From NCBI GenBank assembly GCA_036380735.1, contig DASVEE010000057.1:11646-75645 (forward strand): 64,000 bases of DNA. Direction: 5' to 3'. This DNA comes from Thermoanaerobaculia bacterium (lineage in GTDB: Bacteria; Acidobacteriota; Thermoanaerobaculia; Gp7-AA8). Both the position numbers and the translations under genes were made by a program. Of the stretch, positions 13,281 through 40,103 are shown one piece after another (positions within the stretch are counted from its first letter, which is position 1; every line of letters starts with the position of its first letter). The notes beneath the pieces are model-generated. The model did no database searches, was not told the origin of the DNA, and saw only the letters and a list, made by a program, of their open reading frames with translations.

Positions 13281-13354
13281 TGCCGCGCATTGTATTGGGA
13301 CTGCGCCGCCACCGCCCCCGACGATGGGGCGAACCGCGCGGGGAAGGGGCAAGG

Positions 13355-13475: not shown

Positions 13476-13496
13476 CGACGTGTGTAAGATTTAGCC

Positions 13497-13697
13497 ATGG
13501 CGACCAATCTGGCGATCGATGACCGCCTCCTCGAAGAAGCACAGAAGATCGGCGGGCATCGCACGAAGAAGGCGACCGTGACCGAAGCTCTGCAGGAGTA
13601 CATTCAGCACCGGAAGCAGGTGAAGATCCTTGACCTCTTCGGCAAGGTCGAATTCGATCCGAAACACGACTACAAGAAGCAGCGCCGCAAGGCATGA
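13497..13697 (+). CDS. vapB: type II antitoxin VapB family
   Basis: 66-aa protein immediately upstream of and overlapping (ATGA) a PIN-domain gene. Confidence 0.7.
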   Translation: MATNLAIDDRLLEEAQKIGGHRTKKATVTEALQEYIQHRKQVKILDLFGKVEFDPKHDYKKQRRKA

Positions 13698-14113: not shown

Positions 14114-14136
14114 CACCTCTCGGACGTCGACCGCCT

Positions 14137-14187
14137 CTATCCCATCCGTCCCATTCGTCCTATAGGTCCTATTCGTCCCATCGTTCC
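14137..14187. repeat. ATAGGAC-unit element, single arm (copy 5)
   Basis: CTATCCCATCCGTCCCATTCGTCCTATAGGTCCTATTCGTCCCATCG. Confidence 0.6.
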
Positions 14188-14191
14188 CCGC

Positions 14192-14226
14192 CCCAAAAAC
14201 AAAAAGGGCGGCCTTTCGGCCGCCCT
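14192..14226 (-). terminator. intrinsic terminator of M16 peptidase gene
   Basis: on minus strand GGGCGGCC-GAAA-GGCCGCCC stem followed by TTTTTGTTTTT, 20 nt after stop at 14247. Confidence 0.8.
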
Positions 14227-17249: not shown

Positions 17250-17387
17250 GACGGACGGTTGAATTTCGAATTTCGAATTTCGAATGAAGAAAGAGGTGCG
17301 GCCCTCTGGGCCGGCGTCAGGTTGCGCGCGCGAAGCGCCTCCTTTTTCTTCATTCGAAATTCGAAATTCGAAATTCAACCCTCCGTC
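17250..17387. repeat. large hairpin with arms of tandem GAATTTC heptamers (45-bp arms, 42-nt loop)
   Basis: GACGGACGGTTGAATTTCGAATTTCGAATTTCGAATGAAGAAAGAGG ... CCTCCTTTTTCTTCATTCGAAATTCGAAATTCGAAATTCAACCCTCCGTC. Confidence 0.9.
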
Positions 17388-18046: not shown

Positions 18047-18763
18047 ATGCCCAAACTTCTCTTCTACGTCGGGACGGCCTTCTGCCTCTTCCTCGCCCTC
18101 ACCAGCGGCGCGGAGGCGTTCCGTGAGCTGGAGACGAGCGCCCTCGCGTTCGTCGGGCTGCCGCTGTCGGCTGCGTCGCCGTGGGCCATCTTCGTGGCCC
18201 TCCTCGCCGGGCTGGCCATCGCGGCCATCTTCCTGCGGATGTCGGCGCTGCTCGCTGCCCGCAACCTGTTCGGAGCCTTCTTCGGCATCGTCGCCGTCAC
18301 AGGTGGACTGATCTCGCTGGCCTTCGCGCTCCTCGTCCAGTGGCGCATCGTCCGTGGCGACGTCGCCGCCTCCCCGCTCCTCGGCGAGTTGCATCTGGCG
18401 TCGGTGCTGGCGTTCGGCTTCTTCCTCTCCATGAGCCTTCTGGCGCTGCGGCCGTACTTCAGCATCCAGGCGAGCCGCTTCCTCTCCGCGCTCGTCTTTC
18501 TGCCGCTGCCGCTGTTCGCGCTCATCCTGCTGCAGGAGCTTTTCCTCGCCACCTCGGCCGCCCCGCTCCCGGCCGCGACCCCCGCGTCGCGCGTCTATTT
18601 CGCCGTGTTGTCGATCCTCTTCTTCGCCATCGCCGTCCACTGCATCCGCCACCGCCACCTCTTCCTTGAGATGACCAACCTCCGCGAACTGATGGACGGC
18701 CGCGTCGACCCGCTGGGGCGCGCATCCCGCCGACCGATCGGCGGCGTGGCCTTCGATTCTTAG
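18047..18763 (+). CDS. hypothetical polytopic membrane protein
   Basis: ATG 18047; at least 6 hydrophobic helices, Ala/Leu-rich. Confidence 0.5.
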   Translation: MPKLLFYVGTAFCLFLALTSGAEAFRELETSALAFVGLPLSAASPWAIFVALLAGLAIAAIFLRMSALLAARNLFGAFFGIVAVTGGLISLAFALLVQWRIVRGDVAASPLLGELHLASVLAFGFFLSMSLLALRPYFSIQASRFLSALVFLPLPLFALILLQELFLATSAAPLPAATPASRVYFAVLSILFFAIAVHCIRHRHLFLEMTNLRELMDGRVDPLGRASRRPIGGVAFDS

Positions 18764-18774
18764 CGGCGCCCCTA

Positions 18775-18820
18775 GATAGGACGAATGGGACCGATAGGAC
18801 GAATAGGACCTATGGGACCG
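18775..18820. repeat. ATAGGAC-unit element, single arm (copy 6)
   Basis: GATAGGACGAATGGGACCGATAGGACGAATAGGACCTATGGGACC. Confidence 0.6.
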
Positions 18821-18898
18821 CAGCGCCGCGTATCGGTGGGGCTACCGAGGTAGGTACCATACGTACTGCTGTTTCGGTTGCCCTATTGCCCTGTTGTT

Positions 18899-20401
18899 TT
18901 ACGGCCTTACGCCCGCCGGCCGCAGTTCCCGTGGCCTTGCACATGCCGCCGCATCGCGCGTTAACTCCCATCGGCGTTCCTCCACGCGATGCCACGCTTT
19001 CGACCGCGCCACGTTCCAGGTGCGCCAGCGCGGCGGGGTGGTCGGCTGCGTGCGCAGCAGCAGCTTCGCGGCGCAGGGTGGCAGCGGCGTGCCGCGCTCG
19101 AGCAGCGCCAGGCGGGCGTCGGCGCTGAGGCGGCCGTGGTAGCCGACGTCGAACGGGCGTACGCCGGCGCTCGCGCGAGCGCGGTTCGTGCGCACGATCA
19201 GCGCGTCGGGATTGATCGCGTGCAGCGTCATCAGAGCGACGAAGCCGGTGGCAATCGCTCCGATGGCGAAGCGCTCGCGGCGTCCTGACAGCGCGGTCAC
19301 CGCCAGCCAGACCAGCAGCGCCGCCAGCCACACGATGAACGCGGTCGTGTACACGCGCAGCTCGGTCAGACCGTACTCGTCGCGGTACAACTCCATGCGG
19401 CGGTAAGCCGAGGCGGCGATGACCAGGACCAGCGCCACCATGGCGTAGGTGAGGATGCGGAAGAAACGAAGCGCCTTCGCGTCCTCTTTGTTCACGATCC
19501 ACTCGGCGAAAAGCAGCAGCGGGATCACCAGTGCGACGACGATCGCCAGCTCGAAGAACCCTCGGCGCGCGTACTCCGCGTACGTCAGCGATTCCGTGAC
19601 CCGGATGACGGTCGTGCCTCCGAAGAGATAGCGGAACTGCACGGCCACGAACGCGGCGAACATCACGTTGACCAGCGTCAGCGCCACGTTCAGCTCCGCC
19701 GCGCGAAGCGTCAGCACCCGCGGTTTCTCCCGGCGCGGCATCGGGCCGCTGGCGATGAGGCTGCGGAAGAAGCACGCCGCGATGACGCCGACGACCAGCG
19801 TCACGAAGACGTGAGCGAAGAGGTCGATGATGTCGACGAAGATCAGGTCGCGCAACAGCTCCGCGAACGCCGCATCGGCGGAGCCGAGGAGGACGCCGAA
19901 GATCAGGAGGAGCGGGAAGGCGAGGAGGCCGCCGCGGATCAGCGTCATCAGGCGCGAGCTGCCGTCACCGCTCGCCAGGCGCCGCCACTGCAGGTCGGAG
20001 AAGGGGAGCTGGAACAGCGCGCCGATCGTCTGCCCCGCGGTCGTGACGATCGCCGCGGCGAGCTCCATCAACCCCGCGGCCGTCGCCCGCACCTCGCGCG
20101 CCGGCAGCGCGACGAGCAGGAGCATGAAGTGACCGACCACCACGTCGAGCCAGACGAGCGGCGCCGCGTCGCGCCAGACGATCCCGATCGCCGCGAGCAG
20201 CGCACAGAGGCCGGGCAACAGGAGCCGGACGAGCGGCTGCGGCCGGAAGCGCTGCGTGAGCGTAACGGCCGCGGCGACGAACAGCAGCGTCCAGAGCGCC
20301 ACATTCAGTCCCCACGGGATGTGGCGGAGGAGCACCGAGGCGGCGAGCCCGATCCCCAGCCCGGTGAGGGCCACGTTCACGGCGGCGCGGTGGTCGTACA
20401 T
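18899..20401 (-). CDS. large polytopic membrane protein (DUF4153/DUF4173-like)
   Basis: start at first true ATG 20401 (MYDHRAAVNVALTGLGIGL...); more than 10 predicted TM helices; upstream part of track ORF 18899..20698 is the 21-bp array read in frame. Confidence 0.55.
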   Translation of the reverse strand: MYDHRAAVNVALTGLGIGLAASVLLRHIPWGLNVALWTLLFVAAAVTLTQRFRPQPLVRLLLPGLCALLAAIGIVWRDAAPLVWLDVVVGHFMLLLVALPAREVRATAAGLMELAAAIVTTAGQTIGALFQLPFSDLQWRRLASGDGSSRLMTLIRGGLLAFPLLLIFGVLLGSADAAFAELLRDLIFVDIIDLFAHVFVTLVVGVIAACFFRSLIASGPMPRREKPRVLTLRAAELNVALTLVNVMFAAFVAVQFRYLFGGTTVIRVTESLTYAEYARRGFFELAIVVALVIPLLLFAEWIVNKEDAKALRFFRILTYAMVALVLVIAASAYRRMELYRDEYGLTELRVYTTAFIVWLAALLVWLAVTALSGRRERFAIGAIATGFVALMTLHAINPDALIVRTNRARASAGVRPFDVGYHGRLSADARLALLERGTPLPPCAAKLLLRTQPTTPPRWRTWNVARSKAWHRVEERRWELTRDAAACARPRELRPAGVRP

Positions 20402-20465
20402 GGTGAACTTTGTACTGCAAAGCGCCGCGATTGTCCATTGCGACGCGGAGCCGGACGTCACGACG

Positions 20466-20945
20466 CTGAGATCGAGGACCTCAACGTTGAAGTCGCGCAT
20501 CTCAACGTTGAAGTCGCGGACCCCAACGTTGAAGTCCCGGACCTCGACGTTGAGGTGGCGGGACCCCAACGTTGAAGTCGCGGACCCCAACGTTGAAGTC
20601 CCGGACCTCGACGTTGAAGTGGCGGACCCCAACGTTGAAGTCCCGGACCTCGACGTTGGAGTCGCGGACCCCGACGTTGGAGTCCCGGACCTCAACATTG
20701 AAGTCGCGGCACCCCAACGTTGAAGTCGCGGACCTCGACGTCGAAGTCGCGGACCCCAACGTTGAAGTCGCCGACCCCGACGTTGGAGTCGCGGACCCCG
20801 ACGTTGGAGTCCCGGACCTCAACATTGAAGTCGCGGCACCCCGACGTTGAAGTCGCGGACCCCAACGTTGAAGTCGCCGACCCCAACGTTGAAGTCGCGT
20901 ACCTCAACGTTGAAGTCGCGCACCTCAACGTTGAAGTTGCGCATC
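20466..20945. repeat. tandem array 1: about 23 copies of 21-bp unit CCAACGTTGAAGTCGCGGACC
   Basis: near-identical units with T/C and A/G variants, each containing the palindrome CCAACGTTGG core; lies 65 bp upstream of gene 18899..20401. Confidence 0.95.
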
Positions 20946-20948
20946 CCG

Positions 20949-21062
20949 GGGTTGGGGCCGGGGGACGATAGGACAAATAGGACGAATAGGACCGATGGGA
21001 CGAATAGGACGCAGACCGATGCCATAGGTCCCATGGGTCCTATCCGTCCTATCGTCCGCCCG
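20949..21062. repeat. ATAGGAC-unit hairpin element (copy 7)
   Basis: GGGACGATAGGACAAATAGGACGAATAGGACCGATGGGACGAATAGGAC ... GTCCCATGGGTCCTATCCGTCCTATCGTCC. Confidence 0.85.
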
Positions 21063-21135
21063 GCCCGGTCTCCCCCGGCCGGATCCGCCATACCGCCGGT
21101 GACGGCGCCCCACGCCGCCGTAGAATGCGCGCCGC

Positions 21136-22023
21136 ATGCTCTGGTTCTTCATTCTCTTTACCGTGCTGCTGCCCGGCATCGGCATCCTCTGGATGTTCCG
21201 CCGCTCCCCGCAGCCGCGCCTCGGCTGGATCGCCACGTTCGCCTTTGCAGCGGCGCTCGTCGGCGTCAGCGTCGTCGCCGCTCCCTGGGGGTGGCTCGGC
21301 TACGGGATCCGCGTACTGATGCTCGCGTTCTTCATCGGCTCGGTCATCTCCTCGTGGCGCCGCAAGGATGCGGAGCCGCAGAAGGACAACCCCTTCTTCA
21401 TCGTCGGCCGCTTCGCCCTCGCCGTCTTCTTCTTCAACGGCCTCGGGCATGCTCTGGCCGGGTGGCGCGAGCCCTCCGGCGCCATCGACATGCAGTTCCC
21501 TCTGGCCGAGGGAGTGGCCATCGTGGGACAGGGGGGCTCGACGATGACGCTGAACTACCACAATGTCGACGTTTCCCAGCGCTACGCCCTCGACGTCCAG
21601 CGCCTCAACCCCCTCGGCATGCGCGCCTGGGGGCTGCTGCCCGAGGAGCCGAAACGCTACGCCATCTTCGGCACGCCGGTGGTGAGCCCGTGCGACGGCA
21701 CCGTCCTCGCGGCGGTCGACGGACTGGCGGACAACCGCGTCGGCCAGACCGACCCAAAGAACCTCGCCGGCAACCACGTGGTGCTCCGCTGCGGAGCGGC
21801 CACCGTCTACCTCGCTCACTTCCAGAAGGGGAGCGTCGCCGTCAAGGCCGGCGCCCCCGTGAAACGCGGCACGCCCCTGGCCAGAGTCGGCAACTCCGGC
21901 AACACCACGGAGCCTCACCTCCACATCCACGCCGAGCGGGGAGGGACGAAGCTCGGCTCCGCCCCCGGCGTGCCGCTGACGTTCGGCGGCCGGTGGCTGG
22001 TGAGAAACAGTTTGGTGTTTTAG
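21136..22023 (+). CDS. membrane-anchored M23 family metallopeptidase
   Basis: 3-4 N-terminal TM helices; C-terminal domain with GTPVVSPCDGTV and VGNSGNTTEPHLHIHAE (M23 HxH motif). Confidence 0.6.
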   Translation: MLWFFILFTVLLPGIGILWMFRRSPQPRLGWIATFAFAAALVGVSVVAAPWGWLGYGIRVLMLAFFIGSVISSWRRKDAEPQKDNPFFIVGRFALAVFFFNGLGHALAGWREPSGAIDMQFPLAEGVAIVGQGGSTMTLNYHNVDVSQRYALDVQRLNPLGMRAWGLLPEEPKRYAIFGTPVVSPCDGTVLAAVDGLADNRVGQTDPKNLAGNHVVLRCGAATVYLAHFQKGSVAVKAGAPVKRGTPLARVGNSGNTTEPHLHIHAERGGTKLGSAPGVPLTFGGRWLVRNSLVF

Positions 22024-22094
22024 CGACAAGGCCGACGAGCCCCGGCAGCCAGGCTGCAGCACCGGCTGATTTACGTGTCGCGCCGCTGTTTTTC

Positions 22095-22560
22095 AGGTGT
22101 CACACGGTCGGTCTTGGGTAACGCTTGCTCTGTTCCGGGTGTCGCAAAGCCGGCTCTGAGTGTCGCAAAGTCGGTTTCGAGTGTCGCAAAGTCGGTTTCG
22201 AGTGTCGCGAAGTCGGTTTTGAGTGTCGCGAAGTCGGTTTCGAGTATCGCGAAGTCGGTTTCGAGTGTCGCATTCTCGTCCTGAGGACACTGAAAGTCGG
22301 TTTCGAGCGTCGCATTCTCGTCCTGAGGACACTGAAAGTCGGTTTCGAGTGTTGCATTCTCGTCCTGAGGACACTGAAGGTCGGTTTCGAGTCTCGCAGT
22401 CTCATCCTCGGGGGCTCGCGTGAATGCTGCGGAGCTTCGACTTGCAGCCCGGGAGTTTCGAGTCGACGTCGTGGAGCTTCGCCCCACGGTCCCGGCGTTT
22501 CGCGTGCGGAGCTCCGCCTGGCAACCGCGGAGTTTCGGGCGGCAGCCGTGAACCTCCCTT
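22095..22560. repeat. tandem array 2: 21-bp units TGTCGCAAAGTCGGTTTCGAG (x6) then 42-bp higher-order units (x3) then degenerate 21-bp units
   Basis: periodicity visible through 22560 (GCGGAGCTTCGACTTGCAGCC / CGGGAGTTTCGAGTCGACGTC ...). Confidence 0.9.
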
Positions 22561-22779
22561 CGGATGGTCTGGACGTCCGACGGAAACCTCGCGGAGTGTC
22601 GATCCGTTCTCACGGAGTCATGCTCGATTACCGAGGACTCCCGTCTTGCACGGGCACGCAGACGAGTTTGGCGCGGAGGGACGCGGGCGCAAAACGAAGG
22701 AAGGAGCCGCCCCAGTGTCCGCTGATGTCCGACGTTGACGGCACTGCGGAACCGTGGGTGCTTGCTGCTGAGTATTCGT

Positions 22780-23352
22780 TCACTGCTGGTGCGGGCTCCG
22801 GCCTGTCATTGCGGTCAACCGCTCTCGCAGCTTTTGTCGGAGATCGGTGATCCCGCGGTACTCAGGCACGTTGTGTACTGAGAGGTCAAAGTGAAGTGCT
22901 GTGCCCTCGTGGCGGTAGAGAATCGGCCGCTTGCCGAGTGCGTGCGCGTAGCCGATTTCGTAGTAAACATTGGGGCGAGCACCTGACAAGTCCGCGAAGA
23001 GGAACTCGGCACGCGCGATATGCTCCAACACGACCTCCGTAATCTTCCCCTGATGCTCGATGTCGTCTGCACGCGCCGCAGCAATGCCGAATTCAGCGAA
23101 CGTCTCTTTGACAATCACGTGCACATCCGCCAATTGTGGCTGCGACGGATCCATCCACATGATGATGAAAGCTGTGTTGGGTGTGTGCGTCGACTGCCGA
23201 ACTTTGGTCGCAGATGCAGGGTTGTCCGCGTGGGCGGTGCGAACGATGCGGAGCGCGTCACTCATCGCGTTGCGTGCTTCTACTTTGGCTGTGTCGATCG
23301 ATGCCTCGCGCGCTTCATCGAAGCTCGGTTGTGGAGAAAGCGCAGTAAGCAA
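22780..23352 (-). CDS. nucleoside 2-deoxyribosyltransferase-like / Rcl(DNPH1)-fold protein
   Basis: C-terminal motif FADLSGARPNVYYEIGYAHALGKRPILY matches the D..GT..E.G.A.A.GKPV catalytic-Glu signature of NDT/Rcl family; track start is TTG, internal ATGs at 23265 and 23160 are alternative starts. Confidence 0.55.
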   Translation of the reverse strand: MLTALSPQPSFDEAREASIDTAKVEARNAMSDALRIVRTAHADNPASATKVRQSTHTPNTAFIIMWMDPSQPQLADVHVIVKETFAEFGIAAARADDIEHQGKITEVVLEHIARAEFLFADLSGARPNVYYEIGYAHALGKRPILYRHEGTALHFDLSVHNVPEYRGITDLRQKLRERLTAMTGRSPHQQ

Positions 23353-23834
23353 AAATCCTGACGCCTTCGAGTTCGCTGCAGGTCGATACTCAACGAAAAA
23401 CTTGCAACCAGCTATCGCTGCGCTAACTTTGCTTAGCAGGCGCGCAATATCGTCGCGACTGTGAGGGGTGTATGGCAGGACGGTTGTGGCGACAAGGCTA
23501 AACCACCGATGAGCACGATCGCGCAGACCGGCGATGATGGCGACGATTCAGGCGGCAATCGGTCGCCGCGGTGGTCATAGGCATCGTCCGAAGGCCAGCT
23601 CTCCAGATGGGCCGCAATATCGTTCTGCAGTTCAATACCAACATCGTAGACCGCGCGAAAGGGTTGTTCCACGTGCACCGGAAGGCTGAGTCCGTGGGGA
23701 TCGTCATCCAGCATCTCTGGAGTATAGCTCGCCCAGAACGGGTCACGAAGGCGGCCGCAAACCCGTAGCAACGAGTGACGACGGCAATGGAAGGGCGGCA
23801 CCGCCGCCCTTCCATGATCAAGACGTCGTGCTAC

Positions 23835-24650
23835 CTACTTGCAGGACTGACCCGACACGCCGGCCATCGTGCAGAAATAGTCGCCGACGAAGCAGTGTGC
23901 GTCGCACTGCAGGACGCGGCAGCAGCCGATACAACGGCTGTTCCAGCACTTCACGTGAGCGTCCTGCTCGGCCTGATAACAGAGCATCGACCGGATGAGC
24001 GTTGCGGGGTCCGCGCCTTGTAAGCCGTAGGCGGTTCCGCGCACCCACAGCCCGCCGCAGCTTCCGCCTGGCGCCTCCCAGGAGTCCGTTTCGAATCCTT
24101 CGAAGGTCTCTCCGCCGGGACCATCGGGAAAGGTGCCGCTCTCATCCACCTTCGCACGGCGGGATAGCCGGCCGTGCAGAGGTACACCATTCTTCGCGAG
24201 GTCGCCCAGTGCTTCCACCGCCAGCGCGATTTCCTTTTCGCGGCGCGCGAATGCCACCTCCGCGCCGGGAGTGGCCGTGGTCGACCGGTCAGCACCGGCG
24301 GTCAATGTGAACCGGCCGCCATCTTTTTCCACGAGCGTCAGCGAAGGCGTCTTCGCATCCCACTCGAGCTGGAACTCGGCTGCTGACGACGCATAGGTGA
24401 TGACGCGCGCGAAGGAGCGCGTTGCCTGTGTGCTGACGCGGGCGGTGACGTTCGCCGATTCGTCCAGCAACTCTACTTCTGTGCTGTTCTCCTGAACGTC
24501 GATGCGATAGCCGGTGACGCCGAGCTCGGCCACCTTCAGCGAAGCCATCCGCGTGTCATCGACGGTCCAATCGTTCGCCGCGAACGCGCCGGGGACAGCA
24601 AGAGCGGCTACAAGAAGTGCGACACTCAGACCCAGTAGTTTCTTCTTCAT
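23835..24650 (-). CDS. secreted hypothetical protein with C-terminal Cys-rich module
   Basis: GGAGA RBS then ATG 24650 (MKKKLLGLSVALLVAALAVPGAFA signal peptide); C-terminus CYQAEQDAHVKCWNSRCIGCCRVLQCDAHCFVGDYFCTMAGVSGQSCK has 10 Cys. Confidence 0.55.
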   Translation of the reverse strand: MKKKLLGLSVALLVAALAVPGAFAANDWTVDDTRMASLKVAELGVTGYRIDVQENSTEVELLDESANVTARVSTQATRSFARVITYASSAAEFQLEWDAKTPSLTLVEKDGGRFTLTAGADRSTTATPGAEVAFARREKEIALAVEALGDLAKNGVPLHGRLSRRAKVDESGTFPDGPGGETFEGFETDSWEAPGGSCGGLWVRGTAYGLQGADPATLIRSMLCYQAEQDAHVKCWNSRCIGCCRVLQCDAHCFVGDYFCTMAGVSGQSCK

Positions 24651-24951
24651 CGAAATCTCCATCGTTGGGCGCGGATCTCCACCGGGCCGGGGGGCCCGTG
24701 CCGCGCCACACGTCAATTGGCATTCCTCTGCCGGGACGTTCTCAGATGGCCATCGGTTTACTTCAGGCAGGAATGATGGGCGGCACGTTAGCGGACGGTG
24801 TGTCGCGCGTCCACTATCAATTTGTAAGCGAACGAAAGACGTGACTCCGCGCGTGTTCGTTCGTGCGAGAATCGGGCGCATCGATGGCGGTACGTAAAGG
24901 TGGCGGTAGGGAGTTGCCGCGCAACGTCACTCCTTCGGAGAGAGCATCGAC

Positions 24952-25824
24952 ATGCCACGAGAGAAGAAAAGCGGGAGGGTCGCGCCGCTGGAAATCGTGA
25001 TGCGCACGTTCCGCCTGCGGCCGTCCAGCGTGGTGGCGGAAGCTGCGCGTTTTGCACGGCTCCTGCGAGTGCGGAAGCTCAGCCGCAACCACCTCCTGCG
25101 CATTCGGAACGGTGCGCGGACTTCGCAGGAGAAGATGATTCTCCTCGTTGCGACGCTGCGCGCCATGACCGGGTGGCCGATCCGCGTTACCGACTTGTTT
25201 GACGTGGAGCCGTTGTTGACCTTCGCGGGCGCCACCGCCGTTTGTGGCGACACTCTTGCGGTTTCAGTATTCTCGCCACAGCCGCAGCGGCTGGCTTCTG
25301 CCATGGACGAGATCGACGACCATTCCTCGGCAACACAAGTTCTGGATCGCTTGTACCGGGAGAACTGCGCGCTCCTCCTGAGCACGGCGATCTGCCGCTA
25401 TCACGTTCCTCCGAAGGATGCCGACGGATTGGTTCATGACGTATTCGCCTCCTACCTGGAGCGGCAACCGAAGGTCGGCGATTCCCGCGCGTACCTGCTC
25501 GGCGCGATCAGGAACGCCTCCCGCCATTACTGGCGGAAGCGTGCGCATGAGAGCCCGTTCCTGCCGGCGCACGCCGAGACGTCGGATGACGCCACGGCCG
25601 CAGGCCTCGACCGCTGGGCCCTGAACGTGAGTCTTTCAGTAGCGCTTTCCAAGCTGGGTGATAAGTGCCGTCAAACCCTGTTCCGCTATTACTTCGCGGA
25701 GGAGCGCCCCGACTCGATCGCACGCGACATGAACACCACGCCCGGCAATGTTTCTCAGATCCTGCATACGTGCAGACGGCGGATTCGGGAGATCTTCCGC
25801 GCGCTGACGGAGCCCAAACGATGA
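24952..25824 (+). CDS. ECF sigma factor with N-terminal XRE-type HTH extension
   Basis: N-terminal LSRNHLLRIRNGARTSQEKMILLVATLRAMTGWPIRVTDLF (XRE-like HTH); sigma region 2 (LDRLYRENCALLLSTAICRYHVPPKDADGLVHDVFASYL) and region 4 (SIARDMNTTPGNVSQILHTCRRRIRE). Confidence 0.7.
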   Translation: MPREKKSGRVAPLEIVMRTFRLRPSSVVAEAARFARLLRVRKLSRNHLLRIRNGARTSQEKMILLVATLRAMTGWPIRVTDLFDVEPLLTFAGATAVCGDTLAVSVFSPQPQRLASAMDEIDDHSSATQVLDRLYRENCALLLSTAICRYHVPPKDADGLVHDVFASYLERQPKVGDSRAYLLGAIRNASRHYWRKRAHESPFLPAHAETSDDATAAGLDRWALNVSLSVALSKLGDKCRQTLFRYYFAEERPDSIARDMNTTPGNVSQILHTCRRRIREIFRALTEPKR

Positions 25825-27152
25825 CGGAACACTTCTCGGAAGCCGAACTCTGGGACTTGGCGAGTGCATCCCAGGCATCTTCCCAACGCGCACGTCTGCA
25901 CTTCGAAGCGTGTGAATCATGCCGGGCGCTCTACGAGTCGTTCGCCGCGATCGATGCCGGCCTGCGGGAGAGAGACGTCTGGGCGGCGGCGGAACACCTT
26001 CGCGTTGAAGGTGCCGACAGCGCCTTACGACTGCGGCAGTTTGCCGCGCGGCTTGACGCTGAGCGCGAGGATGCGGCGCGCCTGCTGCAGCCGGTCCTGA
26101 TCTCACCGGCCGAATTCGAGCGTCACGACGTGGTACGGCAACCTTCATTTCAGACGGCCGCGTGCGTGGAAATTCTGTGCAACACCGCCGAGCAGATGCG
26201 CGAACGACGGCCCTCGTTCGCATTGGCGTTGGCGACAACCGCTGCCACGATTGCCGGAAAGCTGGAACGGACACCTCGCACGCTCGGGCTACGAGCCCGG
26301 GCGGAGTTGGAGAGAGGCATTGCACTGGGAATGACGGGGAAGTTCGCAGGCGCCGAAGCTGCGCTGGAGCGTTCGGCCGCCGCGCTGGACGAGGCGCCGT
26401 TAGCGACGGACTGGGAGTACGCCTGCGTCGGGCTGGCGCGGGGCGTCATCTATTCGAACAGCGAGCGATACGACGAAGCAATCGGTGAGGCTGCCGCCGC
26501 GGCCGCGGTGTTCCGCGAAGCGGGCGATATGACGCGTTATCTGAAAGCACAAATGGTCGTGGCGAACGTCGACATCTACAGAAACCGATACGCGGACGCG
26601 ACGATCATCGCGCAGGAAATCGTCGCCGCTGCACGCCACTCTGATGACGTGCTGCTGCTCGCGCAGGCTCATCACACCGCGGCACTTTGCTACAGCGGCT
26701 TGAACGAGTGCGATACCGCTCTCGACCATTACGCGGAGGCGGCGACCCGATGGGATGAGCTCGGACTTACCACGGAGTGCGTCCGTGTCGAGTGGGCAGT
26801 TGCAGCGCTGCTCGTCCGACAGGGCCACATGGCCGCGGGAATCGAACAACTAGCATTGTTGCCGGGCCGTTTCGCAGCGCTGGGAATGATCAACGACGCG
26901 GCGCTCGCCAGTCTGGATCTTGCGGAGGCGCTGATTCTCGCCGGGCGAGCCTCCGACGTGCCGTTGATTCTGAGCGGCGTGATCGTGACGTTCTCGAACG
27001 AGGGCTTGATGCGCAGCGCCAACTTGGCTCTCGCGTACCTTCGCGAGGCGGCTGGCAGCAACGACGTGAGCGCGGACAAGATCCGCCACGTGCGCGACTA
27101 TCTGGCGGCGCTCCCGACACACCCGGGCCAGCGGTTCGAGCCGCTCCGCTGA
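25821..27152 (+). CDS. putative anti-sigma factor (zinc-binding N-terminus, TPR-like repeats)
   Basis: ATGA overlap with sigma stop; HFEACESCRAL (HxxxCxxC ZAS-like); long helical repeat region. Confidence 0.5.
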   Translation: MTEHFSEAELWDLASASQASSQRARLHFEACESCRALYESFAAIDAGLRERDVWAAAEHLRVEGADSALRLRQFAARLDAEREDAARLLQPVLISPAEFERHDVVRQPSFQTAACVEILCNTAEQMRERRPSFALALATTAATIAGKLERTPRTLGLRARAELERGIALGMTGKFAGAEAALERSAAALDEAPLATDWEYACVGLARGVIYSNSERYDEAIGEAAAAAAVFREAGDMTRYLKAQMVVANVDIYRNRYADATIIAQEIVAAARHSDDVLLLAQAHHTAALCYSGLNECDTALDHYAEAATRWDELGLTTECVRVEWAVAALLVRQGHMAAGIEQLALLPGRFAALGMINDAALASLDLAEALILAGRASDVPLILSGVIVTFSNEGLMRSANLALAYLREAAGSNDVSADKIRHVRDYLAALPTHPGQRFEPLR

Positions 27153-27180
27153 GCGGGAGTGGGCCGGTGCAACATTTTGA

Positions 27181-27590
27181 GTGCGTGCTTCGCCCGTACG
27201 ATCGCGCCGCATGGGCGCAAGAAGGCGGTCTACTCTTCACGACGACGTCGTGCTTGCCGTGAGAATCGAGGAGTATCTGGGCCTTTGCTTCGAATCGTGC
27301 ACGGCTGCACGTGTAACGGAGCTTGCGGAAACGATAGGCGTCAGCCGACCGCTGTTGACGCGCAGGTGCGCCGAAGTGTTTTGGCGCCACGCCTTTACAA
27401 GTGCTGCGCGAACGTCAGCTCGGATTCGCCGCCGGGTTACTCACATCGCTGCCACGGCTCACGGTATCCGAGATTGCCCGAAGGGCGGCGTTTGGAACGG
27501 AAGCAACGATGTTCCGCGCGTTCGTCGCGAGGTATGGATGCACCCCCGAGGAATACCGCAATAAGCTTACAAAATGATAGTGGACGCACT
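27181..27590 (+). pseudogene. frameshifted AraC-family HTH domain protein
   Basis: first HTH helix pair in frame of ORF 27181 (VTELAETIGVSRPLLTRRCAEV), second in another frame (FGATPLQVLRERQLGFAAGLL...FGTEATMFRAFVARYGCTPEEYRNKL); shift in the T-run near 27380. Confidence 0.45.
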
Positions 27591-27624
27591 CTGACCCCTC
27601 GCGTATCGTCCGCAACATTCCGGT

Positions 27625-28338
27625 ATGCATTTAGACAAATTGCTTTCCATCGCGAGCGATCCACTGGGGCCCGCACTGATCCGAGCTTCCTGTGAGGAAT
27701 CAGTCCCTCGGTCGGTATACGAACTGCTGGCAGCTCGGAATGGTTTTTACCTTCTGGCGAAGGCAGTTCACGTGTTCCCACTGAGCGCACACAACATCCT
27801 CCCGATGGATGCAGAACGATGGAATGCACCAGTGCTGTGGAAGGCTGCTTACGGTGGCTTGTGGCGCGACATGTTCGTGTTCGCGGAGAACGCACTGGGA
27901 TGGCAGTTTGGCATGTCTGCCGAGGGGGTCTACGCCTTCGATCCGGAAACTGCCGCTGTGGAGTGGATGGGGCGGAACCTCGAGGAGTGGGGCGACACGA
28001 TCTCTAAGCGGTTCGAGCACTTCACGCGGTTCGGCGTGGTCCACCGCTGGCAGACTGCATTTGGCCCTATTCCGGACGGTGTGCACCTCGTGCCTCGTCT
28101 GCCGGTGGTTCGCGGTGGTTCGTATGATGTTGCGAACTTCCTTCTGACCGATGCCGTCACGAGTCTGCGTATGCGGGCGCGGCTGGCTATCACCGTCGAT
28201 CAGGCTGCAGATGGAACTTCGCTGGGCATCGTGCGCGGCCGTCTTCGCTCGTTCGGCACCAGTCCGGTGGCGGCACCGACGTGCGACCGGTGCAGATTGC
28301 AAAGGTATGTCAACTCGACGTGGCTGGGACAGCACTGA
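27625..28338 (+). CDS. SMI1/KNR4 (SUKH-1)-like protein, possible orphan immunity protein
   Basis: VPRSVYELLAARNGFYL and FVFAENALGWQFGMSAEGVYAFDPE resemble SUKH-1 motifs; no toxin gene adjacent. Confidence 0.4.
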   Translation: MHLDKLLSIASDPLGPALIRASCEESVPRSVYELLAARNGFYLLAKAVHVFPLSAHNILPMDAERWNAPVLWKAAYGGLWRDMFVFAENALGWQFGMSAEGVYAFDPETAAVEWMGRNLEEWGDTISKRFEHFTRFGVVHRWQTAFGPIPDGVHLVPRLPVVRGGSYDVANFLLTDAVTSLRMRARLAITVDQAADGTSLGIVRGRLRSFGTSPVAAPTCDRCRLQRYVNSTWLGQH

Positions 28339-28478
28339 TGATCCCGCAGCTTTGCTGGATGCATTTGGCAATGAATGCGTACGGCCCTCTCCAATCTCTC
28401 ATCAGCGGCGGCCTTCGAGCGGGAACTCAAAGCGCCAGCGACCCGCCGCGCGCACCCGGCGCCACCAGAAGAATCATC

Positions 28479-28697
28479 ATGCCCAGCCCTGAAGATGAAG
28501 CTCGCGCTGAGCTGGCGGAACTGCTCGCGGGATGGAATGCCCTCCTCGGTCTGATCGAGGAGGGGCATCCAGGGCTTGCTTGGATGAAGGGCGACGTCGA
28601 CGCCGCGGCGCGACTGACACGCTCGCTCATCCACAGCATGGCGGACCCTGCTCTGCAACTGCGGCCGACACGCTTGACTGAGGTTCGTGCTCCTTGA
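28479..28697 (+). CDS. small hypothetical protein (72 aa)
   Basis: ATG 28479 (MPSPEDEARAELAELLAGWNALLGLIEEGHPG...) inside track ORF 28281..28697; no motifs. Confidence 0.25.
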   Translation: MPSPEDEARAELAELLAGWNALLGLIEEGHPGLAWMKGDVDAAARLTRSLIHSMADPALQLRPTRLTEVRAP

Positions 28698-28702
28698 ACC
28701 GT

Positions 28703-28878
28703 CAAGGCCACGGCGGCGTCGGTTTTCCGAGCAGCCAGATGACGAAACGGACCACCGCGGGGCGGCTCATCTGTTCTCGGGTGCGTCCGGCGGCGGGTAA
28801 CGCCGATGCCATCGGGGTGAGCGCGATCGCTGCGAGCAGGGCAGTGGTGGCAGCTAACTTATTCACACGTAAAGACAT
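28703..28878 (-). CDS. small secreted peptide (58 aa) not in ORF track
   Basis: AAGGAG SD 5 nt upstream of ATG 28878; MSLRVNKLAATTALLAAIALTPMASA signal peptide then 32-aa mature part. Confidence 0.35.
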
Positions 28879-29144
28879 GCCTTCTCCTTCGGCGCCGCCG
28901 CTTCAAAGTTATGGCGGCTCCGCTGACACAAGGTGACGCCGGCTGGCGTTCAATTAGAGAAGGATTCCGGCGCCTTGCCGTACCTGGCCAGACGGCGTGG
29001 GATCCCGCCTGGAGCCGGACGGCATTCGTCGTGGTGACGCGGCGCTTCGTACCCGCAAGCCGCTCACTCGTACCGGGATGGAAACTTTGTTACCCTTCCG
29101 CCGTTCAACCTGCGGTCACAACATCGTTCCAGGAGGATCACAGG

Positions 29145-31145
29145 ATGAAATCCATCCGTCTGGCGCTCGCCGTTGCTGCGCTCGCCATCACTACGCCGCT
29201 GCTGGCGGCCGGCCGTTTTGAATCGCTGGTGAACGGGTACAAGAACTTGCAGCCTGGTGATGCCACTCAGGTCAGCGGCGTCACGTTCACGATCGGGCAC
29301 ATGAAGATCACGCTCGAGTCGGGTAAGGCGGCGCCGCTCATGGTTGCCGGCGAACAGGCCGGCATCTTCTTCGTGGGGCAGGGGTCGTTTCAATACGTCT
29401 CAGCCGACAAGGTCGAGATTCCAATCCTGACGTACAACACGAAGAAGGAAGCGAAGCTCGATGCCAGCATCAAAGGCACCGAGGCGGTCCTGAGCGACAA
29501 GTTCACCGAGATCCTGCTCCTCGGCGCCGGAGTCGAGCTGCCGAAGCTCACCGGTGGCGGGGCGGGTTCGATCGCCGAAGAGCTGAAGAAGAACGTCGAG
29601 TACTTCGAGCGCGATCGCGGCGTGCCGCAGGAGCATCAGCTCGCGCTGCAGAAGCTCGCGTATCCGACATCGAAAGTCGTCCGCGCGCAGATCCGCGGCG
29701 GCGGCGACAACCTTCTGTATATCTATGACGGCGCCGAGACGACCGAAGAGTCGCTCGTGACGCTGAAGAACATCGGCATCCAGGACCGGACCGTCGGAAG
29801 CTGGCTGCGCTCCTCCACGCTGTCAGCGTTGCCAATCGATCGCGACCGCAAGACGCCGCCGAAGGCTCCGTACCTGCTGACGGACCTCGACTACACGCTC
29901 GTCGCCGATGGCGAAAACGCCAAGATGATGGCGACGGAGACGATCTACCGTCCGGCGCACGCAACGGCTCTTCGCTTTACGCTCAACGACATCTCCCTGC
30001 CGCGCCTCGGCGTGGCGCCGCGCCGCTACAAGGTCAACAGCGTGAAGGACGCGACCGGCCGCAGCCTGCCGTTCGACTTCACCGACACGAGCCTTTTCGT
30101 CAGCGTCGAAGGGATTCAGGGCGAGACGATCAAGCTCACGTTCGACATCGAAGGCGACTACCTCATCCGTCCGAACGGCGACGCGTTCTGGCAGCTCGGT
30201 GTCGAGCCGTGGTTCCCGCAGCCCGATCTGAACGGCCAGTACTACACGGTTCACTCGGTCGTGAAGGTGAAGAAGCCGTGGATCGCCTTCGCCCCCGGCA
30301 AGACCATCCGCCGCGTCACGGAGGGGGACTACAACGTCGTCGAGAACCGACTCAGCGAGCCGGTGCAGTTCGCGGTGGTGCATGCGGGCAAATACGAGTA
30401 CTCCGAGGAGACGCGGGGCGGCTTGACGGTGCGTGTCGCGGCGTATGCCGGCAAGAACGAGCGCGCGGAAAAGCAGCTCACGAACCTCACGTATCAGCTC
30501 GTCGAGTACTACCAGTTCTTCCTCGGGCCCTTCCCGTTCGAGGAGTTCAACATCATCCAGATCAACGACTGGGGCTACGGTGTTGCGCCTCCGGGCACGA
30601 TGTTCGTCACCAACTCGGTCTTCCAGCCGACGATGGGTGATCTCAACCGCATCTTCTCAACCGGGTCGAACGAGCTGTTCGCGCACGAGATCGCGCACCA
30701 GTACTGGGCGCACTCGCTGAAGATGCCGAGCCTCGAGGAGCAATGGCTGACGGAGTCGTTTGCCGAGTACTCGGCAGCCCTCGCGCTGCGGAAATACCAG
30801 GGAGAAGGCGTCTACAAACGCATGGTGGCCCGATGGAAGCAGAGCGCGAAGGACGCCGGCAACATCGCCCCGATCGCGCTGGCCAACCGCATCGCCGGCG
30901 ATCCGCAGGACGCCTTCATGCGCCGAACGGGTCTGCTGTACAACAAGGGACCGTATGTCCTGTACGCAATGCACAAGGAAATGGGCGATGACCAGTTCCT
31001 CACGCTGCTGAAGTCCTACCAGAAGTCGCGGCGCTTCAAGTTCGGCAACACGGCCGACTTCGCGAATCTGGCGCAGTTCCTCACGAAGAAGGACTACCAG
31101 CCGTTCTTCGACAAGTACTTCTGGGGCACTGAGATGCCGCAGTAA
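29145..31145 (+). CDS. secreted M1-family (aminopeptidase N-like gluzincin) metallopeptidase
   Basis: AGGAGG RBS, ATG 29145, signal peptide MKSIRLALAVAALAITTPLLAA; HEIAHQYW ... WLTESFAEY (HExxH-x18-E gluzincin signature). Confidence 0.8.
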   Translation: MKSIRLALAVAALAITTPLLAAGRFESLVNGYKNLQPGDATQVSGVTFTIGHMKITLESGKAAPLMVAGEQAGIFFVGQGSFQYVSADKVEIPILTYNTKKEAKLDASIKGTEAVLSDKFTEILLLGAGVELPKLTGGGAGSIAEELKKNVEYFERDRGVPQEHQLALQKLAYPTSKVVRAQIRGGGDNLLYIYDGAETTEESLVTLKNIGIQDRTVGSWLRSSTLSALPIDRDRKTPPKAPYLLTDLDYTLVADGENAKMMATETIYRPAHATALRFTLNDISLPRLGVAPRRYKVNSVKDATGRSLPFDFTDTSLFVSVEGIQGETIKLTFDIEGDYLIRPNGDAFWQLGVEPWFPQPDLNGQYYTVHSVVKVKKPWIAFAPGKTIRRVTEGDYNVVENRLSEPVQFAVVHAGKYEYSEETRGGLTVRVAAYAGKNERAEKQLTNLTYQLVEYYQFFLGPFPFEEFNIIQINDWGYGVAPPGTMFVTNSVFQPTMGDLNRIFSTGSNELFAHEIAHQYWAHSLKMPSLEEQWLTESFAEYSAALALRKYQGEGVYKRMVARWKQSAKDAGNIAPIALANRIAGDPQDAFMRRTGLLYNKGPYVLYAMHKEMGDDQFLTLLKSYQKSRRFKFGNTADFANLAQFLTKKDYQPFFDKYFWGTEMPQ

Positions 31146-31153
31146 ATCTCTCG

Positions 31154-31177
31154 GAGCGCCGGCGGAAGCCGGCGCTT
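31154..31177 (+). terminator. stem-loop after M1 peptidase gene (no clear U-tract)
   Basis: GAGCGCCGGC-GGAA-GCCGGCGCTTC. Confidence 0.3.
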
Positions 31178-31235
31178 CGGAGAACCGCTGGCTCCATCTG
31201 GCGGCTGGCCGGCTGCTCCCAACCACCGTCGATTG

Positions 31236-31925
31236 ACCGGTTTAGATCCGCCCACCGCGGTTCGAGCTCCGAAATGGCGGTTCGGGGTCCGGGCCCGGTA
31301 GTCGACGTCCGAAAGACGGCGGTTCAGGGTCCGAGCATGGCGGTTCCAAGTCCGAGTACCGCGGTCTGACGTTCGCGCGCGGCAGTTTGATGTCCGCGCC
31401 CGGCGGTCTGAGGTCCGCGCACCGCGGTCTGAGGTCCGAGCACGGCGGTTTGACGTCCGAGCACCGTGGTTTGAGGTCCGCGTACGGCAGTTTGAGGTCC
31501 GCGCACGGCGGTTTGACGTCCGAGCACGGTGGTTTGACGTCCAAGCGCGGCGGCTTGACGTCCGAGCACGGCGGTTTGAGGTCCGAACACGGTGGTCAGA
31601 GCGCGCCCTTTGGGTAATCAGACCACCGTCATCGGACTCGAAACCGCCGTGATCGGACTCGAAGCCGCCGTCATCGGACTCGAAACCGCCATGATCGGAC
31701 TCGAAACCACCGTCATCGGACTCGAAACCACCGTCATCGGACTCGAAACCACCGTCATCGGACTCGAAACCGCCGTGACCGGACTCGAAGCCGCCGTGAC
31801 CGGACTCGAAACCGCCGTGACCGGACTCGAAACCGCCGTGATCGGACTCGAAGCCGCCGTGCTCACACTTGTAAGCGGCGTGACCACGCTCGAATCGGCC
31901 GCGATCGCGTCGCCTGTGACCGAAG
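31236..31925. repeat. palindromic double tandem array 3: about 17 x 21-bp units (GGTCCGAGCACGGCGGTTTGA) then about 14 inverted units (ACTCGAAACCGCCGTGATCGG), centre near 31610
   Basis: direct reading; left half top strand equals reverse complement of right-half unit consensus. Confidence 0.95.
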
Positions 31926-31989: not shown

Positions 31990-34332
31990 TTGATGCGCAA
32001 CGTTCGGAACATCTTCTTTGCCTGCAGCCTCGTCTGTGTGGCGGTAGCCGCGTCCGCGGATGCCGTCGGTGATGGCGTCGTCGACGCGGTTCGCCGCGGG
32101 GATCGTGCCGCGGCCGTCGCGGCTTCGCGTGCGGCGGACGATCCGGCGCCCATCGTCGAGGGGTTGCTTGCCGTCATCGAGGACAAGCAGGCTTCGACCG
32201 AGATCCGCCGCGATGCCGCTCAGGTGTTGAGCCAGATCCCCGTCGACGCCAGCGTGCGTCTGCTCCCGACGTTCGAAACGGCTTCCGACGACCTGCGCCT
32301 CGAGTTGATCGACGCGATGGGCGCCCATCGGGCGCTGCTCGCGCTCGCGAGCGACAGCAAGGCACGTTGCTCCCTTCGCACCGCCGCCGTCACGCGCTAC
32401 TGGAGCGCCGGCGGGAACCGCGCGCCGGTGCACGCGCTCTTCTCCAGCGAAACCACGCCGCCCTGCGTCGTCGTGGCCATCGCGCCGCTCCTGCAGCAGG
32501 ATCTCGATCGTGCCGACCTTCCGACGGTCGCCGCCACAGCGTCGCGCCTGGTGCTGGAGGGGCAGTCGCGCAACGAGCTGCTCGACCTGCTCGCGTCGAC
32601 CGCCGCGCGCCTCCCGCAAAAGGACGCGACGCGACTCGATCACGCGATGCTCGACGTGGTCGCCCGTCCGGCGGCGACGCACCGCCGCATTGCCGCGCTC
32701 CTCTACTTGCAGAAACGCGGCGTCAACGCGCCGCCCGATCCGGGGATGCTCCTGCGCATCGCCACGGATGACACCGCGCCCGAAGCGCTCCGCGACGCCG
32801 CTCTTGGCGCCGTCGGTTCGCTCGGCCGCCTCGACGCGCAGGCGACCGGCCGTTTGACGAACTTCGCCTCACGTCCGCAGCTCACGCCGCGGCTGCGCCG
32901 CGCGGCATTCGAGGCGCTCGCCGCCGTCGGTGCCGCTCCCGATCGTCCTGTGGCCACAGCCGCCGCCCCGGCGCTCGCCTCGGCGATGACCACCGCGCCG
33001 GCGAGCGCCGACGGCCTGGCGTTCACGCTGCCGCGCATCTCGCCGATGGCGGCCGTCGTGCTCCTCGGCGCGCTCGCGTTGCTCGCCTTCTTCATCGCAC
33101 AACCCATCGTGCTCGATCGCTGGGTGCGCAAGCATCTCAGCGTCGCGCGCGAGCGCTTCGCGGCGAAGGAAACAGTGAAGGTGCGCTCCGCGTACGTGCC
33201 GATGCCGCTCGAGCTCAATGACCGCCGCATCGAAGCCGACGACGTCGACGACGCCATGCGCGCGCTCTTCCGCCGCAGGTGCGTGCTCCTCATCAGCGGC
33301 GAAGGTGGCTCCGGCAAGACGTCGATCGCGGTGAAGCTCGCGAACGACGCGCTCGCCGCGAAGAAGCCGATGCTGCCGGTGCTCATCGAGCACGACTTCG
33401 ACGGCACGCTCCTCGACGAGGTCCGCGAACAACTGCACGACCTCCTCGGCATCAACGTCGCGCCGCAGCTCGCGCGCAAGCTGCTCCGCCAGGGACGCGT
33501 GCTGCTCATCATCGACCACTACTCCGAACTGCAGGAAACGTCGCGCCGGAAGATCGACACGAAGCAGGCGCGCGCCGTCATCATCACCTCGCGCAACGAC
33601 GAGCAGTTCCTCGGGCGCACCGTCATCAATCCGACGCGCATCCGCTGGAGCGATCTGACCAGCTTCATGGAGCACTACCTCCGCCTGCGCGACAAGCTGG
33701 AGCTGTTCAGCGACCGCGAGTTCCACGAGGCCTGCCGCAACTTCGCCGAGATGACGCACGGCCGCGACTCGACGATTCTCCTCGCCCGGCTTTTCGCCGA
33801 TCTGATGATCTCCGCGAAAGAGAAGAAGATGGAAATTCTGCCGCGCAGCGTGCCGGAGCTGATGGTGCGCTACGTCCGTTTCATGAACGTCTCGCGGCAG
33901 CCGGGCGATCCGAACAACGACGAGATCCAGCGCGCTGCCAGGCTCGTGGCATGGGAGTGCGTGAAGCAGGAGCTGGCGCCTGCACGCGCCCGCCTCGACG
34001 ACATCCGCCGCGCGGTCGGCGACGACGCCGACGAACTGCTCGAGTACCTCGAGCGCGACCTGGCGCTCATCGAGATCTGCGAGCCGGCACGCGCCGAAGT
34101 CCGCTTCACGCTGGATCCGCTGGCGGAGTACCTGGCTGCGCTGCACATCACGGAGCTCCACGGCGACGACGTGGCCAAGTGGGAGTCGTGGGTCGAACTG
34201 CTGCCCGACAACGGCCAGCGCATGCGCGGCTTCCTCCGCGCGGTCCTCGACTGCATCGGCACCGGCGACGAGCTGGAGCTCGCGCGAGAGGCGATCCGGA
34301 TCCGCATGACGGTGTTTGCGGCGGCGGCGTAG
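31990..34332 (+). CDS. membrane-anchored NACHT (STAND) NTPase with periplasmic HEAT-repeat domain
   Basis: signal peptide MMRNVRNIFFACSLVCVAVAASADA; HEAT/PBS-lyase-like repeats aa 30-330; TM helix MAAVVLLGALALLAFFIAQPIVL; Walker A GEGGSGKTS, Walker B VLLIIDHYSE, NACHT sensor motif AVIITSR; helical C-terminus. Confidence 0.75.
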   Translation: MMRNVRNIFFACSLVCVAVAASADAVGDGVVDAVRRGDRAAAVAASRAADDPAPIVEGLLAVIEDKQASTEIRRDAAQVLSQIPVDASVRLLPTFETASDDLRLELIDAMGAHRALLALASDSKARCSLRTAAVTRYWSAGGNRAPVHALFSSETTPPCVVVAIAPLLQQDLDRADLPTVAATASRLVLEGQSRNELLDLLASTAARLPQKDATRLDHAMLDVVARPAATHRRIAALLYLQKRGVNAPPDPGMLLRIATDDTAPEALRDAALGAVGSLGRLDAQATGRLTNFASRPQLTPRLRRAAFEALAAVGAAPDRPVATAAAPALASAMTTAPASADGLAFTLPRISPMAAVVLLGALALLAFFIAQPIVLDRWVRKHLSVARERFAAKETVKVRSAYVPMPLELNDRRIEADDVDDAMRALFRRRCVLLISGEGGSGKTSIAVKLANDALAAKKPMLPVLIEHDFDGTLLDEVREQLHDLLGINVAPQLARKLLRQGRVLLIIDHYSELQETSRRKIDTKQARAVIITSRNDEQFLGRTVINPTRIRWSDLTSFMEHYLRLRDKLELFSDREFHEACRNFAEMTHGRDSTILLARLFADLMISAKEKKMEILPRSVPELMVRYVRFMNVSRQPGDPNNDEIQRAARLVAWECVKQELAPARARLDDIRRAVGDDADELLEYLERDLALIEICEPARAEVRFTLDPLAEYLAALHITELHGDDVAKWESWVELLPDNGQRMRGFLRAVLDCIGTGDELELAREAIRIRMTVFAAAA

Positions 34333-40102: not shown

Positions 40103-40103
40103 G

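Follow-up and report, generated by a model that had tools for sequence, protein, structure and literature searches.

To our knowledge, long tandem repeats are rarely tolerated by bacterial genomes. The iterons of R6K, pPS10, RK2, F and P1 consist of directly repeated protein-binding sites placed about 22 bp, or approximately two helical turns, apart. The centromere arrays parC (R1) and sopC (F) are also directly repeated protein-binding sites, the sopC unit being 43 bp long and including an inverted repeat. Both iterons and centromeres are present once per replicon, beside rep or par genes. The mycobacterial interspersed repetitive units-variable number tandem repeats (MIRU-VNTR) have units of 40-100 bp of a few related types, are dispersed between genes at tens of loci and change in copy number. 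Repetitive extragenic palindromes (REPs), recognizable by a conserved GTAG or CGTC tag on one side of the palindrome (PMC3733652), are known to form tandem arrays, as are the REP doublets forming hairpins (REPINs; PMC3733652, PMC3116915). Here we describe arrays of 21-bp direct repeats at three loci, A1, A2 and A3, in a 64,000-nucleotide stretch (the window; C57:11646-75645, C57 being one of the contigs) of the genome of a Thermoanaerobaculia bacterium (G000; draft assembly of 6.86 Mb in 76 contigs). No literature was found on 21-bp tandem repeats or on repeats of Thermoanaerobaculia.

The arrays belong to a dispersed non-coding class, in which the period is common to unrelated lineages, arrays are copied as blocks and the content turns over between sister species. 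We lean towards reading the three loci as separate members of this dispersed population of internally homogenized 21(/22)-bp arrays, whose units are putative protein-recognition sites two helical turns apart. Tandem Repeats Finder (TRF) and direct reading located four period-21 arrays at the three loci, which bears out their existence as given in a preliminary description of the window:

20466-20945, strand not applicable: array A1, about 22 units of GTTGAAGTCGCGGACCCCAAC (TRF span 20472-20941, 22 copies)
22095-22560, strand not applicable: array A2, at the left edge of a 7.1-kb island (TRF span 22132-22408)
31236-31596, strand not applicable: A3L, the left half of A3, units GTCCGAGCACGGCGGTTTGAC (TRF span 31329-31596; units of the outer edge degenerate from about 31236)
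31597-31621, strand not applicable: centre of A3, about 25 non-repeated nt between the inverted halves
31622-31925, strand not applicable: A3R, the right half of A3, units ACCGCCGTGATCGGACTCGAA, the reverse complement of the A3L unit (TRF span 31622-31907)

In all window arrays the units abut head-to-tail with no unique spacers between them (direct reading), and a CRISPR array was ruled out because unique spacers of similar length are absent. The exact 21-bp period at first attributed to every array does not apply to A1: anchored on the A1 core, its units are spaced by 21 bp 18 times and by 22 bp three times, and they form a higher-order period of 127 bp (5x21+22). The A1 unit is almost self-complementary, with the palindrome CAACGTTG / TCAACGTTGA. 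Since A1 is 70% identical to its own reverse complement and folds on itself (z = -6 to -9 against shuffles), its orientation is not a meaningful property. A2 begins with about six 21-bp units (GTTTCGAGTGTCGCAAAGTCG), continues into three 42-bp units that add the near-palindrome GTCCTGAGGAC, and runs out in degenerate units up to about 22560. The whole of A3 is one long imperfect hairpin, with a single-stranded DNA fold of -197.6 kcal/mol against -145.6 +/- 5.7 kcal/mol when shuffled (z=-9.1); the arms of A2 and A3, taken singly, behave as shuffled sequence does (z -0.3 to -2.7). The A1 and A2 consensus units carry no GTAG or CGTC tag beside a stem, and A3L has CGTC followed merely by a 3-bp stem (direct reading).

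Unit consensi were aligned cyclically, on both strands and with gaps allowed, against 300 shuffles. A3L and A3R match in inverted orientation (score 16, P<0.003), and so do A2 and A3R (score 11, P=0.003), with the 10-nt core GGTTTCGAGT being common to A2 and A3. As A2 matches A3R inverted, it is oriented as A3L. By contrast, A1 scores 6 with each of A2, A3L and A3R, which is the level of shuffles (P=0.45-0.60). From these alignments, A1 appears to form one lineage, and A2 and A3 two lineages that share the 10-nt core. The preliminary description had proposed a single family with a shared core and with A1, A2 and the left half of A3 in the same orientation; relatedness, core and orientation all survive for A2 and A3, whose halves are inverted copies, and all fail for A1. 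It had also suggested slippage on heptamers as a possible origin, but the units display no heptamer substructure. In a set of 142 non-coding unit consensi, positions seven apart agree with a frequency of 0.279, where 0.263 is expected (lag-7 identity, z=2.0), and AT/GC content shows no enrichment of its period-7 harmonic (z<2); both values are at the level of chance. The small hairpins of the window, thought to be built of 7-bp units, consist more often of 9-bp units, a length that does not divide 21. Finally, the local cluster is no rarer than chance, as three array loci fall within 11.5 kb twice in the genome, against 2.2 +/- 1.6 times under random placement (P=0.62). The practical upshot is that the three window arrays should not be handled as one local system.

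The genome-wide search suggested at that time places them in a large population. TRF on the whole genome yields 422 merged period-21 arrays, 168 of which are at least 84 bp long and occupy 147 loci with a total of about 55 kb. When tandem repeats of 100 bp or more are considered, periods of 21, 22, 42, 43, 63 and 64 bp far outnumber any other. The units fall into about 39 mutually unrelated types, with fewer than 14 of 21 positions in common; within each array they are homogenized and form higher-order repeats. The motif phased every two helical turns, offered earlier with a possible binding protein, thus holds for the period, 21(/22) bp in all these unit types, and a bound protein is suggested by the palindromic core of the A1-type units, which is kept across two genera. 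A search by expectation-maximization alignment for one motif across units gave 7.9 bits against 5.1-5.6 bits when shuffled, a value inflated by related lineages. Two common architectures were rejected: no harmonic that would reflect AT/GC phasing or curvature is enriched (all |z|<2), and a universal core-plus-spacer layout is contradicted by variable positions that cluster in just two of 12 lineages. Arrays have a 7/9-bp hairpin within 100 bp in 29% of cases against 17%, a modest association. Fourteen contig ends fall in 21-bp arrays, mostly of the same lineages (e.g., C29:1-206, C30:1-141, C41:1-268, C20:1-375 and C24:35922-36175). The arrays break the assembly, so that their true number and length are probably higher and the copy numbers may be underestimates.

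Most of this population is non-coding. According to our own codon-usage gene caller, which gives approximate calls, 125 of the 147 loci (85%) do not overlap predicted genes, and the spread of arrays over divergent, convergent and tandem gene gaps equals the genome's own distribution. The non-coding units show no codon-phase GC signal (z=-0.9, against z=21.9 for random 21-nt pieces of real genes); the value for the 17 arrays inside predicted genes is z=2.2. Periods of n*21+1 occur at 35 of the 127 non-coding loci, and the translation of A1 switches frame within the array. An Rfam search of the arrays returned no family at threshold, only sub-threshold microRNA hairpin noise. A promoter and terminator scan of the arrays found a single promoter-like site, at 21099-21126 and outside the arrays, and no terminator-like sites at the arrays. 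In the window, the gene of a small coiled-coil protein (40103-40504, minus strand) includes a genuine coding 21-bp heptad repeat at 40325-40421, which is expanded to about eight near-identical copies in the orthologue of the same-genus genome (L014 5176-5356).

Several lineages are present at more than one locus. A1-type arrays occur at four further loci of this genome: C67:165898-166396 (85% identity), C34:57947-58297, C52:41221-41532 and C35:110439-110705. Over the 77 units of these five arrays, the core AACGTTGAAGT is 90-100% conserved and the five positions that follow it 50-80%, and the units alternate between 21 and 22 bp, generating a 43-bp dimer. Outside G000, the 43-bp dimer with the core CTCAAnnTTGAG is found in G001, a genome of the same genus (C149, period 43), and in a genome of another genus, g10 (G010, C49, period 43). 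No neighbour gene is conserved beside the A1-type arrays, the G001 copy following hisIE. A degenerate A1 pattern had no match in species genomes and viral contigs, among which near relatives are possibly not included. A2 has a copy at C52:100207-100462 that is 81% identical and displays the same two parts, 21-bp units and then three 42-bp units, and G001 has an A2-type array as well, its contig being nearly without synteny to G000. A3-type arrays are located at seven other loci of this genome and were not found in 30 relatives. The lineage of CCGTGCGTTTTCCACGGAGTG comprises 11 loci whose units match at 20-21 of 21 positions and share degenerate edge units, and four loci have the same composite of two array types. 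Because lineage members at several loci keep their internal architecture or edge sequences, the arrays are copied as whole blocks and have not grown independently out of local sequence.

The comparison with relatives, which were sampled and not exhaustively searched, shows how readily this content changes. The genes and elements that surround the window arrays are the following:

18899-20401, minus strand: gene of a DUF4153 membrane protein (Pfam PF13687, E=1.9e-74), with its start codon 70 bp from A1
20954-21066, strand not applicable: hairpin element between A1 and the M23 gene, an inverted repeat (80% complementary) whose arms are runs of 9-bp ATAGGACNN units
21136-22023, plus strand: M23 peptidase gene, conserved in the sister genome (82% amino-acid identity), with array-bearing lineage-specific DNA on both sides
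22024-29100, strand not applicable: lower-GC island between the M23 and M1 peptidase genes
31993-34332, plus strand: gene of a STAND/NACHT-type NTPase with a signal peptide (Pfam nSTAND3 and NACHT, both weak), starting 86 bp past A3

No rep or par gene adjoins the window arrays, their neighbours being the DUF4153, M23 peptidase, M1 peptidase and STAND NTPase genes. Hairpin elements like that at 20954-21066 number hundreds across the genome. Elsewhere in the window, an insertion of approximately 920 bp (13278-14198; 35 bp in the same-genus genome), flanked by runs of 9-bp units at 13359-13408 and 14140-14182, resembles a cargo-bearing hairpin cassette. The part of the island beside A2 (22780-28340) contains four open reading frames (ORFs) that were judged by eye from their translations: a TIR/deoxyribosyltransferase-like ORF (22780-23352, minus strand), a secreted protein (about 23835-24650, minus strand), an ECF-type sigma factor-like ORF (24952-25824) and a long TPR-like partner ORF (25665-27152).

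G001, which belongs to the same genus, shares synteny with the window between 3.4 kb and 64 kb. A1, A2 and A3 are all absent from the syntenic sites, and no 21-bp array occurs in the initial 20 kb of the G001 contig, which cover all three sites. The 2.4-kb block 18763-21137, which includes the DUF4153 gene and A1 and is bracketed by 9-bp ATAGGAC runs, is missing there. The gap between the M23 and M1 peptidase genes measures 63 bp in G001 and 7.1 kb in G000, where it holds the island with A2 at its left edge, and the site of A3 is occupied in G001 by a different 2.8-kb segment. All three window arrays are therefore located at indel or rearrangement breakpoints. Next to the DUF4153/A1 block, the segment 17401-18762 is inverted relative to the same-genus genome, with 7-bp hairpin repeats (17261-17376) and a 9-bp run (18775-18820) at its borders.

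The breakpoint comparison between the two genomes extends over 265 kb, in which G001 still carries at least 13 array loci. Five of 12 G001 arrays belong to lineages also found in G000, with 74-81% identity and at other loci; lineages persist in both species at about gene-level divergence. In the sampled syntenic regions, G001 has no array at six of the seven non-coding array loci of G000, and at least 1 kb of extra lineage-specific DNA lies beside the array at five of the seven. At other loci (e.g., C66 and G001 L033), conserved genes are separated by an array that is a simple insertion, without an accompanying block. The reciprocal situation also exists, a 278-bp array of G001 corresponding to a 29-bp gap without proto-unit in G000, and one orthologous gap harbors 21-bp arrays of unrelated units in both genomes. 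In-place amplification of a local seed was rejected as the origin of the arrays, since no proto-unit is present at sites that are empty in the sister genome. Among other relatives, samples of 177 kb of G007 and 103 kb of G018 yielded no such arrays. No closer strain turned up in metagenomes, where the best M23 relative is 51% identical, and 458 kb of metagenome contigs contain almost no 21-bp arrays. The sample of G007 (same family, other genus) includes long tandem repeats of 200-400 bp that contain GGGGTGCGGATCCTCCGATCCGCC (L004 654-1354, L037 461-977 and L041 8659-13414).

Clustering of the genes beside arrays elsewhere in the genome defines three families: family A, an orphan of about 175 aa with 29 copies; family B, of XRE-type helix-turn-helix (HTH) proteins; and family C, an orphan of about 160 aa. 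An array is located at most 1.5 kb upstream of 18 of the 29 family A genes, against about 4% expected, and XRE-type HTH genes are also enriched, 20 of 51 lying within 1.5 kb of an array. The array units co-diverge with family A: beside proteins of 84-92% identity the units match at 16-18 of 21 positions, and beside proteins of 50-60% identity they match no better than chance. Both cases retain the array and the period. A recurrent module is formed by a 21-bp array, a gap of 50-870 bp, a family A gene and often an HExxH protein of about 355 aa (M4-like peptidase, by eye), with small XRE HTH genes and the 160-aa orphan often located upstream (G000 C44:50130-52718, C67:230703-233020, C71:224572-226816 and about 15 more sites). 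Family A was considered as the array binder and set aside, as it has no sequence match in Pfam, NCBIfam or PDB.

The genome also encodes candidate mobilizing enzymes. Eight genes match Y1_Tnp (like IS200 or the REP-associated tyrosine transposases, RAYTs), three of which have 21-bp arrays within about 1 kb, unrelated to A1-A3. Others are flanked by tandem arrays, of 20-28-bp period, of the CGTC-tagged palindrome GGTGCCACACC. None of the eight is flanked by A1, A2 or A3 units. A REPtron-like setting, with Y1_Tnp genes flanked by arrays of CGTC-tagged palindromes (CGTCGGTGCCACACC), is seen at C27:16198-16394, C71:25120-25339 and 26697-27233. Additionally, several arrays are accompanied by a dispersed element, about 170-230 bp in length, that has the inverted repeat GTGGAGGACAGACACTCTTGTCTGTCC at its bounds (C15:169600-169830, C69:70380-70650, C59:184140-184300 and C64:31480-31520), and one such element adjoins a Y1 transposase-like gene (C15:169993-170265).

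The protein-site reading is favored by four observations, namely the palindromic core of A1-type units kept across genera, the two-turn spacing, the persistence of arrays upstream of family A even where their sequence has turned over completely, and the enrichment of small HTH genes nearby. Each unit would be the recognition site of a sequence-specific protein, often a dimer, and the spacing of two helical turns would put all sites on the same face of the duplex, turning the array into a multi-site docking platform. The binder could be a regulator or architectural protein encoded elsewhere, or an enzyme that moves the arrays; the same four observations also fit recognition by such a mobilizing enzyme. 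Unequal recombination between units would keep the register and homogenize the sequence, and the arrays may stand at block edges because lineage-specific DNA carries them along or is where they build up, not because they insulate it. Several findings weigh against protein sites. No binding protein could be pinned to any window array, and no member of families A, B or C is encoded on the contig of the window, which makes the window arrays orphans. The structural model of family A is confident (pLDDT 84.7) and all-helical, without a fold match, and does not support DNA binding. Across the genome, the orientation and position of arrays relative to genes are inconsistent, the dyad symmetry of units is only slightly enriched (mean 11.9 against 11.0), and in most lineages the variable positions do not group into a spacer (P>0.2 in 10 of 12 lineages, P ~0.02 in two). 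Most arrays are also dispensable between sister species, which fits selfish DNA as well as function. A bolder form, which we put forward tentatively and regard as doubtful, would see a putative new class of bacterial cis-elements in which selection keeps the period and the tandem layout and leaves the sequence free. Each lineage would then provide a docking platform reserved for one DNA-binding protein of its own, kept upstream of paralogous operons through deep divergence and marking hot spots of gene-block gain and loss in sister genomes.

Selfish or neutral minisatellites without host function, tolerated in intergenic DNA, form a possible, if rather unlikely, alternative to protein sites. 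They would arise by slippage and unequal recombination and spread through ectopic recombination or through the trans action of a transposase, as in the RAYT-driven REPs and bacterial interspersed mosaic elements (BIMEs). The frequent differences in presence fit selfish DNA, as sister genomes disagree at most sites, clean empty sites included, and so do the 11 near-identical loci of one lineage (20-21 of 21 positions), the 14 contig ends in arrays and the indifference to divergent, convergent or tandem gaps. Three of the eight Y1_Tnp genes with 21-bp arrays within about 1 kb, and others beside CGTC-tagged arrays, point in the same direction, and tandem REP/REPIN arrays have precedents (PMC3733652, PMC3116915). 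However, no RAYT-like gene is flanked by units of A1, A2 or A3, which also lack the REP-defining combination of GTAG/CGTC tag and stem; pure slippage would leave the 21-bp period of about 39 unrelated units unexplained, as it would the retention of arrays upstream of one gene family whose proteins have diverged by 50%. Much less probable is the original proposal of one heptamer-slippage family acting as recombination or insulation boundaries of gene blocks. The position of all three arrays exactly at structural differences from the same-genus genome, and the lineage-specific DNA alongside five of seven sampled loci, agree with it, so that the arrays do delimit blocks as a matter of description; as a mechanism, by which they would cause or insulate these blocks, the idea is unproven. 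It is opposed by an A1 unrelated to A2 and A3, the missing heptamers, clustering at chance and arrays that are plain insertions without a block; the 9-bp runs that bracket the A1 block are equally good joint candidates, and the island has an array at one edge only. Least credible of all is that the arrays encode heptad peptides (7 aa = 21 bp) or act as structured RNAs. Several frames are open across many arrays and a minority of 21-bp arrays truly code for heptads, such as that at 40325-40421, but the reading is largely refuted by the absent codon-phase signal, the frame shifts that 22-bp units impose in A1 and at 35 of 127 loci, the change of reading frame inside A1, the lack of an Rfam family at threshold and single arms of A2 and A3 that fold no better than shuffles.

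About 55 kb of this one genome lies in arrays with a strict period of two helical turns but no common sequence. If a protein does set the period, whether regulator, architectural or mobilizing, this would amount to a new manner of assembling binding platforms and a new type of mobile non-coding DNA. Should they turn out to be selfish satellites only, the arrays would still be a strong marker of structural variation among related Acidobacteriota, and one that breaks short-read assemblies.

Compared with the known systems, the arrays described here resemble MIRU in being tandem, intergenic and dispersed, and differ in their 21-bp unit and many unrelated types. They also resemble REP/BIME elements and the tandem REPIN arrays associated with RAYTs (PMC3733652, PMC3116915, PMC2817692), which have extragenic and often palindromic units of about 20-40 bp, hundreds of copies and several classes per genome, form head-to-tail arrays at times beside genes, and combine vertical persistence with movement within the genome; Y1 transposase genes are also present here. 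As for the stem-loop of REPs, the picture is mixed: the A1 unit is dyad-symmetric and its array folds on itself (z -6 to -9), the single arms of A2 and A3 are like shuffles, and dyad symmetry over the genome's units is only slightly enriched. Unlike REP/BIME, however, these arrays are strictly head-to-tail, without spacers, with 12-35 copies and a fixed 21-22-bp period across unrelated units, and in the window they have neither a GTAG/CGTC tag with a long stem nor a flanking RAYT-like gene. Iterons and centromeres differ in number and setting from the roughly 150 chromosomal loci and 39 or so sequence types of this genome, with no rep or par gene beside the window arrays. Nevertheless, the arrays share with iterons the direct repetition at about two helical turns, here 21 or 22 bp, and the 43-bp unit of F sopC is reminiscent of the 21+22 = 43-bp dimer of the A1-type arrays.

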